Below are positions 36,200 to 39,956 of a stretch of DNA of 64,000 nt, one piece after another; positions within the stretch are counted from its first letter, which is position 1; each line of letters opens with the position of its first letter. The stretch is taken from sequence record OR525701.1, one strand, 5' to 3'. Source of the stretch: Escherichia phage vB-Eco-KMB38. The notes under the pieces are model-generated. The model made no database searches, was not told the DNA's origin, and worked only from the letters and a program-made list of their open reading frames with translations. The translations under genes were made by a program, and so were the position numbers.

Positions 36200-36505
36200 T
36201 TATTTTCCTCGACATTCTTTAATGAAATTTTCTAGATTGGTAGATTCAATAGCTTTTTTACGAGCTTCTGCGTGTTCTTCTTCAGACAATTTACGTTTAT
36301 AATTGACCCAGACATTATGGTCGAAACCAGTCGTGGCATATAATATCAATGCTCCAACGAATAGCAAAAACGGCGATAAGAATACAAAACCAGGAACACC
36401 ATCCATATCGTAAGCCTTTTGTAATACTGCAACAGAAAGAGCTACGTAAAAAGGTGATGCAAGTATTGTTAAAAGACCAATTCGGTTGGTTTCTGTTAAT
36501 TTCAT
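36200..36505 (-). CDS. hypothetical membrane protein, C-terminal FIKECR motif
   Basis: 101 aa, two TM helices, ends LENFIKECRGK. Confidence 0.5.
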   Translation of the reverse strand: MKLTETNRIGLLTILASPFYVALSVAVLQKAYDMDGVPGFVFLSPFLLFVGALILYATTGFDHNVWVNYKRKLSEEEHAEARKKAIESTNLENFIKECRGK

Positions 36506-36531
36506 AATATTCTCCTCAAGTTGATAGGACT

Positions 36532-36561
36532 ACTATAACATAGTCCTATAATTGTGTAAAC
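36532..36561 (-). promoter_or_regulatory. sigma70-type early promoter with inverted repeat around -10
   Basis: GTTTAC-N18-TATAGT; arms ataggacta/tagtcctat flank the -10. Confidence 0.5.
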
Positions 36562-36573
36562 AGTTTTGTGAAG

Positions 36574-37530
36574 TTATTTGAAAGGTTTTACCATATGGAA
36601 ATTTTGTTTGAAACGTTTGACGTAATCGTCATGTCCTAAGCGTTGGTACATACTTACAACTTTGCTGTAGTTTTCCCAGGCGTATTCACGGAACCAACCG
36701 GAGGTGATGCTTGTGCAAACTTTTTCTAATGCCATCATGAAACTGGCTTCAGAGTTAATTTCAAAGTTATTAGGAATCTGAGAACGTTCTAATGCTAGTA
36801 CACATGATTCTTCATATACACCGGCCAATTTGACCATTTCTGGTAACGATTCGAACTTCTCGCGTGAGGTCATGACTTCAGAACCATCTTTCATGTAAAA
36901 TGTATAAGCCGGACGGTCTGTTAGTGCAATGGCTTCGTGAATAGTATCATGGTCATATGTGTAGATGTCATCTTTAAAGAATGCGCTTTTAGAAGTGTCA
37001 AGAATCGGGTGAGCATAGTTCAAGGTTTCTTTCTGGCGTTTCAGCATAATTTCAGTAAGTTCATCGTTCAGTGTAACACCTTTACCACGAAGATACTGGA
37101 TATGGTTCATAGTCTTTAAAAAGAATGGATTATTTTTCTTGAAACGATGAGACATTTTAATTGCAAGACATATCTCAGGAGTTGCCCAGTAAAACCCGGT
37201 CAAACGATCTTTAGTCAAATTTTTCTTGGCGTATTTTAAAAGGTCATAAGAAGACGTGAAATCTTCAGGAGTGAGTTCACCGACTAATTCACGAACATTA
37301 GTGATTGCCGGAACAATATATGCTTCAAAATGAGTTTCGCGTCCATTATGGAAGCATTTGAAAACTTGGACATCAGGGTTATCTTGGTGAACATATACAC
37401 CCATCATTTGATTTTTGAATGCATTCCAAGAACCTTGGTCCGCAATAAAGTCCCAATCGCTATTTTTGATAGCGCTAGAATCAATAAGACCATGATAGTG
37501 AAGTGCACGAGAACCAATAACTAACATCAT
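36574..37530 (-). CDS. hypothetical protein, possible nucleotidyltransferase fold
   Basis: N-terminal VIGSRALHYHGLIDSSAIKNSDWDF resembles a G-S...D-x-D NTase core; weak. Confidence 0.5.
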   Translation of the reverse strand: MMLVIGSRALHYHGLIDSSAIKNSDWDFIADQGSWNAFKNQMMGVYVHQDNPDVQVFKCFHNGRETHFEAYIVPAITNVRELVGELTPEDFTSSYDLLKYAKKNLTKDRLTGFYWATPEICLAIKMSHRFKKNNPFFLKTMNHIQYLRGKGVTLNDELTEIMLKRQKETLNYAHPILDTSKSAFFKDDIYTYDHDTIHEAIALTDRPAYTFYMKDGSEVMTSREKFESLPEMVKLAGVYEESCVLALERSQIPNNFEINSEASFMMALEKVCTSITSGWFREYAWENYSKVVSMYQRLGHDDYVKRFKQNFHMVKPFK

Positions 37531-37558: not shown

Positions 37559-37810
37559 TTAAATTTCACGACATGCGATATTATATTCATCCCATAGGTC
37601 ATCATGTGAAGCCTCTACCAATGGAACGATTGTACCGTTTATGTCTTCATTATAAGGGCAAATTGTACAGTGCGCATCTTCGAATCGGATGCCTTTGTGT
37701 TCAGATTTTTTATAACGCATATCGAATAACTTTGCAAACTTTTCACGAGTAATAGTTTTAGCAACTACTTCGGTTCCAATACTTTCGTAATAAATCATTG
37801 TGGACTCCAT
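37559..37810 (-). CDS. hypothetical protein
   Basis: 83 aa ORF. Confidence 0.45.
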   Translation of the reverse strand: MESTMIYYESIGTEVVAKTITREKFAKLFDMRYKKSEHKGIRFEDAHCTICPYNEDINGTIVPLVEASHDDLWDEYNIACREI

Positions 37811-37826
37811 TTAATTTGATAGGACT

Positions 37827-37856
37827 ACTATAACATAGCCCTATCTTGTTGTAAAC
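37827..37856 (-). promoter_or_regulatory. sigma70-type early promoter with inverted repeat
   Basis: GTTTAC-N18-TATAGT-agtcctatc; spacer atagggcta pairs with downstream tagtcctat. Confidence 0.45.
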
Positions 37857-37860
37857 TGTT

Positions 37861-38058
37861 TTAGCAAGAATAACTAGACGATACCCAGCCTTGAACAGTA
37901 ATGCTATTATTAGATAATGAGATTGCGTTCTGGAGATTCAGACCTGCGTTATCTTCAATCCATAATGTAACTTCTTCGCGTTCTTCTGTTGCAATTTGGA
38001 ACAGGTTTTCCAGGGCAGCTACTGCCGTACGTACAGCACAATCTAATTCACGAGACAT
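37861..38058 (-). CDS. hypothetical protein, family ending W-V-S-S-S-x-x-C (member 1)
   Basis: 65 aa, ends GWVSSSYSC. Confidence 0.5.
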   Translation of the reverse strand: MSRELDCAVRTAVAALENLFQIATEEREEVTLWIEDNAGLNLQNAISLSNNSITVQGWVSSSYSC

Positions 38059-38067
38059 ATGGTTTCC

Positions 38068-38340
38068 TTAGCAAGTGTGAGAAGATGCGATCCAACCACC
38101 AGTTTCGAGGCTCAGGTTGTAGTCGTATTGGTAAACGTCAGCCCATTCAGCATAGCCGTTTTTTGTACAACGTTCAAGATCGGCTTTAAGCTGTCCGGGT
38201 GAATGATATGTTCCACCCATACCATAAGCTGGATACAAGTCGAATGTTGTGTTTTGTTTATCAGCAATTTCTTTGGCAGCCTCAATAGCTGCATAGATTT
38301 TTGCTACAGCTTCAGCCAGTTCGGTTTGTTCTTTAGACAT
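38068..38340 (-). CDS. hypothetical protein, same family (member 2)
   Basis: 90 aa, ends GWIASSHTC; internal GMGGTYHSPG. Confidence 0.5.
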   Translation of the reverse strand: MSKEQTELAEAVAKIYAAIEAAKEIADKQNTTFDLYPAYGMGGTYHSPGQLKADLERCTKNGYAEWADVYQYDYNLSLETGGWIASSHTC

Positions 38341-38349
38341 AATGATTCC

Positions 38350-38655
38350 TTAGCACAACGCAGAAGACGAAACCCAAGCACCTTCAGTAATAACGTAACC
38401 ATTACCTTCACGCTTAACATCGCCACCATTATTTTCAATTTCATCTTTCATCCACTGGGATACGATTTCACCCTTAGGATAATAAGTACGACCGCTACCA
38501 TAATCACCTACAGAAAATGATACAGAATATTGGTCTGCGATCTTTGTTGCTTCTTCTTCGATACGTTCAGCTTGATTCAGAAGTTTATAAATTGCATCTG
38601 AAGCGGATTTGGCATCATTAAACTCTGGTACTTTAATTTCAATAATCTTACTCAT
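38350..38655 (-). CDS. hypothetical protein, same family (member 3)
   Basis: 101 aa, ends AWVSSSALC; internal YGSGRTYYPKG. Confidence 0.5.
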   Translation of the reverse strand: MSKIIEIKVPEFNDAKSASDAIYKLLNQAERIEEEATKIADQYSVSFSVGDYGSGRTYYPKGEIVSQWMKDEIENNGGDVKREGNGYVITEGAWVSSSALC

Positions 38656-39011
38656 TTTCTACATTCCTTAATAAAGTTTTCTATTGTTTCATTTTCACGT
38701 CTAGCTAGGAGTTCATTATAACTAATCATTTGAGAAGCGTAAACCTTTTTATTTTTCTTGTTATGGTTTATAAAATCGTAGTAAAAATAGACTACAGTAC
38801 AAAAGGATGCGATGGATGCAAAGGCTTGGGTATACCGTAAGTCCTGCCATTGGTCTGTGAATCCACCAGTGTTCCCTATAAATCCTAACACAACGCCGTC
38901 AATAAGAAATCCAACTAATCCAAAGGCAAATCCCATGCCAATACTCATAATAAAAATTAGAATGTTCTCACCAAGAGAAGGCCATACGGTTAAGAGTTGA
39001 GGTTTTTGCAT
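38652..39011 (-). CDS. hypothetical membrane protein, C-terminal FIKECR motif
   Basis: 119 aa, two TM helices, ends IENFIKECRK. Confidence 0.5.
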   Translation of the reverse strand: MQKPQLLTVWPSLGENILIFIMSIGMGFAFGLVGFLIDGVVLGFIGNTGGFTDQWQDLRYTQAFASIASFCTVVYFYYDFINHNKKNKKVYASQMISYNELLARRENETIENFIKECRK

Positions 39012-39385: not shown

Positions 39386-39956
39386 ATTCTCTACATTCCA
39401 TAATAAATTGCTCAAGGATTAAATTGTTAGTGAAATTAGGACTAACAACCATAGTTTCATAAAGCGCATCAATAGCACTTAAAGCATCAACTCTTTTAAG
39501 CAAAGGCTTGCCTTCATACATAGTTTCAGAATCGACGATTAACGTAAAGTAATATTTTTTATTATCGACTAGAACTTCTGTGTCGATATAAAACATATTA
39601 GACCTCAGAAGCTTATCTCTAAAACCATAATAATCTTCTGAACGTTCGCTGATATATTCCCATTCAGTGTTTAAACAACAAACAGACCACGTAGGAGCAA
39701 CGAAATCAGTGAATCTAATATCATGGTCTGCAACTAGTTTAGCAATAGCTCCGATATCATGAATCATAATACCTGGGGCTAATAAAGATTTTCTGCTATG
39801 GCTAGCCGTTTTCTCAGTGGTCTCATAAGAAGCTGACCAGTACCATTTACGTCCGGTTGCAACATATCGTAATGAATCAACTAAAGACGTAGGTGGATTT
39901 ACCTTATCTCGGAACTCTTCGAACATCGAGTCAATATCATTATTTTGGTTTCGCAT
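39354..39956 (-). CDS. hypothetical soluble protein with FIMECREY near C-terminus
   Basis: Start at second ATG (MRNQNND) which follows an aaggag SD. Confidence 0.5.
   Translation of the reverse strand: MRNQNNDIDSMFEEFRDKVNPPTSLVDSLRYVATGRKWYWSASYETTEKTASHSRKSLLAPGIMIHDIGAIAKLVADHDIRFTDFVAPTWSVCCLNTEWEYISERSEDYYGFRDKLLRSNMFYIDTEVLVDNKKYYFTLIVDSETMYEGKPLLKRVDALSAIDALYETMVVSPNFTNNLILEQFIMECREYVKANPVHAN

Follow-up and report, generated by a model that had tools for sequence, protein, structure and literature searches.

Why do three consecutive small genes of a T4-type phage, whose products differ in length, end in one and the same motif? The genes lie in a 64,000-nt stretch of Escherichia phage vB-Eco-KMB38 (OR525701.1; hereafter the window) and encode proteins of 101, 90 and 65 aa (paralogs A, B and C; Table 1) that share the ending W-[VI]-[SA]-S-S-x-x-C, in fuller form GAWVSSSALC, GGWIASSHTC and QGWVSSSYSC, respectively. 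An initial annotation, made from the DNA letters alone, had described the three as tandem paralogs and had suggested that the invariant terminal cysteine is a modification or metal-binding site. We found that this C-terminal tail belongs to a two-part module almost confined to phages, in which one conserved enzyme, a DUF7277+DUF7275 protein encoded downstream, is paired with a variable set of small proteins that bear an invariant C-terminal tag.

The relatedness of the three proteins was borne out by pairwise BLASTP (E=1e-6 for 90 versus 101 aa, 4e-4 for 65 versus 90 aa and 2e-3 for 65 versus 101 aa) and by a shared hidden Markov model (HMM). Of the 529 open reading frames (ORFs) of at least 30 aa in the window, the family HMM picked out paralogs A, B and C and no other, and the tail was found in no further ORF of this set, even with a relaxed pattern. 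The genes are separated by spacers of 9 nt that carry AAGGA, and a Shine-Dalgarno AAGGA lies 6-8 nt 5' of the ATG of each. All three are annotated coding sequences in every Mosigvirus record whose annotation was examined. The window itself derives from an RB69-like T4-type phage of the genus Mosigvirus; its segment 37500-39100 matches 238 phage records and is 100% identical, over the 1.6 kb compared, to that of Escherichia phage AlbertHofmann, an E. coli phage of the BASEL collection. The array is located in the hyperplastic e-segB region, where it is flanked by e.2-like and e.3-like genes.

As the initial annotation had supposed, no named family covers these proteins: Pfam and NCBIfam returned no match for any of the three, and PHROGs placed the 101-aa and 90-aa proteins in phrog_899 (1.1e-22 and 1.9e-18) and the 65-aa protein in phrog_4882 (1.7e-36), both of which are annotated as function unknown. 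The family is nevertheless large and almost confined to phages. When 1.84 billion cluster representatives (clustering at <=50% identity) were searched exhaustively with a profile, 153 were found at E<=1e-3, of which 146 are small; the seven long proteins were discarded as spurious repeat matches (P0038, P0128, P0151, P0153 and P0138, for example, are Ig/PKD/MucBP/HA-repeat proteins). Members are named "hypothetical protein" in their source records with the exception of a single "RraB" (JGI, P0188), a name we rejected because P0188 matched no Pfam family at E<=0.01.

The tail is the hallmark of this family. In the form W-x-[S/A/P]-S-[S/T]-x-x-C, it is present at the end, or one residue from the end, of 141 of the 146 small representatives, with Trp, Ser(-4) and Cys invariant among these 141, so the terminus is retained in distant phage homologs; Cys is the final residue in 133 of the 146. 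Selection on the protein had been proposed because the serine codons of the window tails were said to switch between TCT/TCG and AGT. This switch is real and occurs once, at the third Ser of the 65-aa gene (TCG TCT AGT ... TCT TGC TAA), the remaining tail Ser codons being TCG or TCT (GCA TCT TCT ... TGC TAA in the 90-aa gene and TCG TCT TCT ... TGC TAA in the 101-aa gene). In a set of 183 distinct ORFs that bear the tail and come from other phages, Ser(-4) is encoded by TCN in 142 and AGY in 41, Ser(-3) by TCN in 134 and AGY in 49, and Cys by TGC in 128 and TGT in 55, and the stop codon is TAA in 154, TGA in 23 and TAG in 6, such that every codon for Ser (six) and Cys (two) and every stop codon (three) is used in this region. 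This codon diversity indicates that selection acts at the protein level, and it rules out an RNA or DNA signal such as a ribosome-binding site or terminator as the reason for the conservation. One metagenomic member of 134 aa (P0154) has a complete tail, ..WAASSQSC, that is read through via a Trp codon into a second, degenerate copy, and represents either a fused tandem pair or a phage in which TGA is recoded as Trp.

The tail is also carried by proteins that lie beyond the reach of the family profile. Upstream of the enzyme gene, 38 tail-bearing ORFs escaped the family HMM; among their bodies are types of 52 aa, 139-154 aa (...HAWCSSSMSC) and 146-159 aa (...AVDWDSSSMYC) as well as the 65-aa subtype. 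Variants of the tail itself include WYSSSMQNC, W-x-G-S-S-C, WYSSHC and WQPSAGTC. The Gly-rich segments that had been pointed out in the second and third paralogs (GMGGTYHSPG and YGSGRTYYPKG) are indeed present there; since this loop is missing from the 65-aa paralog and from several other proteins that keep the tail, it is the tail with its terminal Cys, not the loop, that is the common element. Thus, the tail behaves as a portable tag on unrelated-looking bodies. The number of tagged proteins is variable as well. In some phages 4 to 6 consecutive genes of the tail type precede the enzyme gene (one block, for example, holds four tail-bearing genes), and in four viral contigs (L082, L084, L089 and L080) five family genes with shortened or altered tails stand in a row upstream of it. 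In the first three of these contigs a sixth family gene is found just downstream of the enzyme gene, and six profile-matching small genes per enzyme was the maximum.

The link to the enzyme was evident from both parts of the module. In the neighborhoods of five distant metagenomic family members (one 371-kb jumbo phage and contigs of 128, 163, ~90 and 73 kb), a gene for a ~300-345-aa DUF7277+DUF7275 protein was present 0-4 genes downstream on the same strand in all five. Starting from the small proteins, the enzyme gene was found downstream in 35 of 37 loci, which amounts to 35 of 35 testable loci because the other two contigs end too early. Starting from the enzyme, 72 of 80 viral loci contained family-HMM matches, and 74 did so when two loci with tail-only ORFs are added; all 152 matches in the 72 loci are on the enzyme strand and 150 are upstream within ~3.3 kb. 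When 115 loci were pooled, 331 small ORFs were upstream on the same strand, none was on the opposite strand and three were downstream, with a median gap of 308 nt, although these counts are inflated by overlap between the locus sets and by the relaxed pattern. The order and strand of the pair are kept at enzyme identities down to ~38% and in unrelated neighborhoods, and since the flanking genes vary by lineage (RNA ligase/PNKP, NAMPT, gp59/gp32, ribonucleotide reductase or a T7-like kinase), the pairing is not simply a matter of conserved synteny.

The distribution of the two parts agrees with this linkage. By tblastn, 484 phage records matched the 101-aa protein and 733 of 50,697 matched the enzyme, and counts by genus in isolated phages agree for both parts (59/59 for Aeromonas, 18/18 for Shigella and 252/259 for Escherichia). 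Carriers of the module include RB69-like, JS98-like and rV5-like phages, phages of Aeromonas, Acinetobacter and Pseudomonas, jumbo phages and Myxococcus phage Mx1, in which the pair is also found. Outside phages, the enzyme was present in only five of 185,579 species genomes, all of them metagenome-assembled contigs, four of which have tail ORFs upstream, and gave three weak matches among 72,556 plasmids. The whole T4 genome encodes neither the small family nor the enzyme, and its e.2 and e.3 genes abut. A separate observation in T4 concerns Tk.1 (62 aa; L137 10346-10534), which the family HMM matched weakly (14.8 bits; E 0.002 in a set of 1265 T4 ORFs) over the helix-strand-YG.G.TYY part and which lacks the tail; Tk.1 may be a remote tail-less relative in a phage without the enzyme.

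What, then, might the enzyme do with the tail? In the window the partner gene sits 331 nt downstream of the 65-aa gene on the same strand, and its product scores far above the Pfam gathering threshold of 27 bits for both DUF7277 (97.2 bits, E=9e-28) and DUF7275 (262 bits, E=4e-78). The N-terminus contains an hGS...DxD motif (VIGSRA...SDWDF(I)), of which G5, D24 and D26 are present in 41 of 41 enzyme representatives (<=65% identity) and S6 and A8 in 39. The fuller pattern hG[GS]-x(9-20)-Dh[DE]h, with a third acidic residue on a later strand, was found as well, the downstream hEhEI strand being judged by eye. As a short motif only, hGS...DxD(...E) corresponds to the signature of polymerase-beta-type nucleotidyltransferases, and one enzyme homolog was named "putative nucleotidyltransferase" by a GenBank annotator. 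Conservation of at least 90% extends to about 50 further residues of the 41 representatives, many of them His, Asp, Glu, Arg or Lys in the C-terminal domain; they include K124, S126, H127, R128, H173, H193, D194, H197, E239, E240, E247, R248 and the block KVCTSITSGWFRE.

The near-constant linkage to the enzyme gene gives strong indirect support to a docking or modification site. In the reading that we favor, and to which we give about even odds, the tail would be such a site for the DUF7277+DUF7275 enzyme. In the mechanism that we propose, the small proteins would be cytoplasmic and their C-terminal W-x-[S/A]-S-S-x-x-Cys-COOH would act as a tag for the downstream enzyme (36574-37530), which would bind the tail and most likely modify it covalently, for example by placing a nucleotide or phosphate on a Ser hydroxyl or on the Cys thiol. 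A transfer of this type is suggested by the hGS...DxD...E signature together with the invariant His, Asp, Glu, Arg and Lys residues of the C-terminal domain. Because the bodies are variable and acidic and copy number varies, the small proteins could serve as interchangeable substrates or adaptors, directed at host targets in the early phase of infection. In its complete form, this would be a new protein-tagging system almost confined to phages, in which the enzyme recognizes the tail and acts on its Ser or Cys by a nucleotide-dependent reaction, with the outcome being either activation of a changing set of small effectors or their covalent joining to host targets or nucleic acids. We put forward this complete form tentatively, as more doubtful than probable.

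Several observations weigh against the tail as a docking or modification site for the enzyme. The assignment of the enzyme to the nucleotidyltransferases gained no statistical support: profile searches of the PDB with the whole enzyme and with its N-terminal domain found no nucleotidyltransferase; hhalign of the enzyme with the verified MNT protein HI0073 (1NO5) gave a probability of 1.3%, albeit with the DxD motifs in register; and Pfam DUF6036 was weakly matched by just one of 35 enzyme sequences (E 0.07). Divergent enzyme homologs of actinophages have no tail-bearing ORF upstream, which indicates that the enzyme can exist without such partners. In thirteen of the 146 small representatives Cys is not the last residue: in ~7 a single residue follows it, and the others are truncated or tail-less. 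This argues against chemistry that requires a free Cys carboxylate. Finally, a promoter/terminator-like element and an 83-aa ORF intervene between the array and the enzyme gene in the window, so the two parts are possibly on separate transcripts.

The actinophage homologs (Gordonia phage Smoothie gp16, L129 3809-4600; Streptomyces phage Annadreamy gp196, L130 3878-4633) are shorter, and in them KVCTSITSGWFRE is replaced by RRTITSLTKG or KKTITSFSKGWF; they lack both the Cys of this block and tail partners. We considered that this conserved enzyme Cys and the tail Cys might form a disulfide or thiol relay, and rejected the idea since two other enzyme lineages without that Cys keep four tail genes.

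The conserved residues of DUF7275 could also be read differently, in that H127, H173, H193, D194, H197, E239, E240 and E247, all invariant, could hold a metal. The small proteins might then be non-covalent regulators or inhibitors of the enzyme, comparable to an antitoxin or a cysteine switch, with the thiolate or carboxylate of the terminal Cys plugging the metal site until the enzyme is released or redirected. The terminal Cys is the sole Cys in half of the members, the pairing is near-obligate, and a small gene directly upstream of a ~300-aa hGS...DxD protein recalls the order of MNT-HEPN, MenA-MenT and AbiEi-AbiEii; the MNT-HEPN transferase AMPylates its partner protein, a precedent for modification of the partner. 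However, sequence or profile similarity between these pairs and the window module was not detectable. Those pairs are cellular toxin-antitoxin or defense loci with one partner each, whereas the module is almost phage-only, has a defined C-terminal tag and provides up to six profile-matching small genes per enzyme; this multiplicity, and one tail on very different bodies, are unusual for an antitoxin. PADLOC models likewise gave no credible match: the small proteins hit none of them and the enzyme only Cas8b, weakly (E 0.0077, 13.6 bits). The actinophage homologs have no such partner. We regard non-covalent regulation or inhibition of the enzyme as unlikely.

Structure prediction bears on the remaining alternatives. 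The usual body consists of a long N-terminal helix (..EAE.IADE.G..F.F), the loop A-Y-G-M-G-G-T-Y-Y-P and an acidic variable linker of ~22 residues with a net charge of ~-4. An AlphaFold2 model of the 101-aa protein, built from a 137-sequence alignment (predicted local distance difference test [pLDDT] 94, predicted template modeling score 0.80), comprises helix 15-43, strands 47-49 and 56-59, helix 67-75, strands 79-83, 86-91 and 93-96, and helix 97-100; in this model the final strand contains the tail Trp, and the chain ends in a short helix, S-S-x-x-C, that packs against the domain. The model of the 65-aa paralog (70 sequences) is less confident (pLDDT 76). Its helix, hairpin and terminal helix follow one another as they do toward the C-terminus of the 101-aa model, in keeping with a shortened form of this domain, and a relationship by fold, at lower confidence for the smallest member, is predicted as well. 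Foldseek with the 101-aa model found no match in the PDB at E<=1e-3, a fold search of BFVD returned only uncharacterized phage proteins, and a sequence-profile search of the PDB with the three paralogs gave only noise. As for the metal-binding role first suggested for the tail Cys, a set of three or four conserved Cys/His ligands within one chain was not found among the 146 members; one Cys is invariant and 73 of the 146 have no other, which makes a metal site within one chain unlikely.

A tail that packs on its own domain also fits a reading of the small proteins as independent effectors that would bind host proteins, e.g., as acidic decoys or DNA mimics, with the tail serving folding, oligomerization or an inter-subunit metal and the linkage reflecting only co-regulation or co-transfer in a mobile cassette. 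The acidic linker and the long N-terminal helix, which could mediate oligomerization, are in keeping with this, and in the window the enzyme cassette has its own promoter-like site and is bracketed by a 50-nt repeat. Nevertheless, co-transfer leaves unexplained why order and strand persist across enzymes of ~38% identity and unrelated neighborhoods, why one tail occurs on different bodies only beside this enzyme and why both parts are absent together from T4, and we hold independent action of the small proteins to be rather improbable.

The compact fold also bears on a fourth possibility, namely that the small proteins are precursors or scaffolds resembling those of ribosomally synthesized and post-translationally modified peptides (RiPPs), with Ser-x-x-Cys giving rise to a small product or forming a ring, for instance aminovinyl-cysteine (AviCys), and the downstream enzyme acting as maturase. 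AviCys-forming peptides such as epidermin end in S-x-x-C-COOH, a layout shared by the tail Ser(-3) and terminal Cys, and tandem related small genes beside one enzyme resemble multi-precursor RiPP clusters. However, lanthipeptide and AviCys systems have an unstructured precursor with a variable core, whereas a compact domain is confidently predicted here and the presumed core is the invariant part, the opposite of RiPP logic. Moreover, no LanD-type flavoprotein (decarboxylase), dehydratase or radical-SAM gene was present in the five neighborhoods inspected, and a residue follows the Cys in ~7 of the 146 members. A RiPP-like role is accordingly very improbable.

Returning to the proposed tagging of small proteins by the DUF7277+DUF7275 enzyme, its closest parallels are systems that combine a short invariant C-terminal motif, varied bodies and one dedicated enzyme, i.e., ubiquitin-like or sulfur-carrier proteins with E1, CaaX prenylation, and sortase or exosortase sorting. 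The small proteins have neither the beta-grasp fold nor the C-terminal Gly-Gly of the ubiquitin-like and sulfur-carrier proteins, and the tail Cys is last in 133 of 146 members rather than fourth from the C-terminus as in CaaX proteins. A further parallel is GlnD/PII, in which a uridylyltransferase modifies a Tyr in the Gly-rich loop of a ~110-aa protein: the module likewise has a ~100-aa protein with a Y-G-x-G-x-T-Y loop and an enzyme that possibly pairs a nucleotidyltransferase head with a His/Asp-rich helical domain. However, no search revealed homology to PII or GlnD, and the 65-aa paralog keeps the tail without the loop.

By HMM score the window proteins are members of phrog_899, phrog_4882 and, for DUF7277/DUF7275, phrog_2141. 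These entries are labeled "function unknown", do not record the tail as a hallmark, keep the 65-aa subtype apart from the other two and make no link between the small proteins and DUF7275. In the literature library searched, no paper mentioned the motif, these ORFs or the PHROG and DUF families; we found no structure for either part, and no relative of known function by sequence for either part or by fold for the small proteins. The pairing of tag and enzyme thus appears to be undescribed, and it may yet follow a familiar logic. The module is present in hundreds of sequenced lytic phages, and the combination of an invariant tag on diversifying small proteins, copy-number variation and near-obligate pairing with one highly conserved enzyme is the mark of a dedicated enzyme-substrate or enzyme-adaptor system. 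A role in host takeover or counter-defense is suggested by the location of the genes, a block of the hyperplastic e-segB region with promoter-like sites of the early/middle type, and T4, which lacks both parts, offers a natural negative background. If true, tagging would follow a logic comparable to that of ubiquitin-like or sortase systems while being unrelated to them in sequence and fold.

Table 1. Positions of the tail genes, the enzyme gene and nearby elements in the window
Feature	Position	Strand	Basis
Promoter-like site TTTACG-17-TATAAT, inside e.3-like gene, upstream of array	38715..38743	-	Sequence pattern
Paralog A, 101 aa (RB69ORF139c), GDYGSGRTYYP subtype, ends AWVSSSALC	38350..38655	-	phrog_899; AlphaFold2 pLDDT 94; family HMM 3.9e-25
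Tail codons W-V-S-S-S-A-L-C, paralog A	38353..38376	-	Sequence read; family logo
Paralog B, 90 aa (RB69ORF137c), AYGMGGTY subtype, ends GWIASSHTC	38068..38340	-	phrog_899; family HMM 4.4e-23
Tail codons W-I-A-S-S-H-T-C, paralog B	38071..38094	-	Sequence read; family logo
Paralog C, 65 aa (RB69ORF136c), minimal subtype without Gly-rich loop, ends GWVSSSYSC	37861..38058	-	phrog_4882; AlphaFold2 pLDDT 76; family HMM 1.5e-6
Tail codons W-V-S-S-S-Y-S-C, paralog C, third Ser AGT	37864..37887	-	Sequence read; family logo
50-nt repeat copy 1, early-promoter-like site and stem-loop, directly after paralog C	37813..37862		86% to copy 2
83-aa ORF, phrog_3723, between array and enzyme gene	37559..37810	-	Profile match
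Enzyme (partner) gene, 318 aa, DUF7277 (residues 2-101) and DUF7275 (residues 120-305) (RB69ORF134c), phrog_2141	36574..37530	-	Profile matches; linkage
50-nt repeat copy 2, directly after enzyme gene	36518..36567		86% to copy 1, direct repeat

The surroundings of the array contain several promoter-like elements. At the place equivalent to the site within the e.3-like gene (Table 1), a T4 middle-promoter match is annotated in phage SA79RD. Copy 1 of the 50-nt repeat contains an early-promoter-like site (TTTACA-17-TGnTATAGT, 37855-37827, minus strand), and its position is annotated as a terminator in a relative. The two copies bracket a cassette composed of the 83-aa ORF and the enzyme gene, and the repeat resembles the promoter-stem-loop elements that have been proposed to shuffle cassettes in the hyperplastic regions of T4-type phages. 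The promoter-like sites and the repeat fit expression early in infection and modular shuffling. The 83-aa ORF occurs only in enterobacterial T4-like lineages; for this reason we rejected it as a component of the core module, to which it probably does not belong.

Some existing annotations in this stretch differ from ours. In the RB69 reference record (P0002), RB69ORF139c is annotated as 71 aa and ends in ..SQWYEK, shorter than the 101-aa window protein, and the 101-aa form is 97-100% identical in the other Mosigvirus records listed; the short version probably results from a frameshift or sequencing error in the RB69 record. In NC_018855.1 (the RefSeq record of phage HX01), the 90-aa paralog is labeled "tail completion protein" and another small ORF nearby "major capsid protein". 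The name "sulfurtransferase" was considered for the small genes and rejected, as in two GenBank records it sits on the neighboring e.4-like membrane protein. All three labels look like annotation errors. Finally, neighboring genes for small membrane proteins (e.3/e.4-like) have a recurrent ending of their own, ..NFIKECR(G)K or ..FIMECRE, at 36200-36227, 38652-38676 and 39386-39407 (minus-strand gene ends). The underlying DNA, TTTATTAAGGAATGTAGAAAATGA, recurs at 78-91% identity; for the next gene it provides the Shine-Dalgarno sequence and an ATGA in which start and stop overlap.

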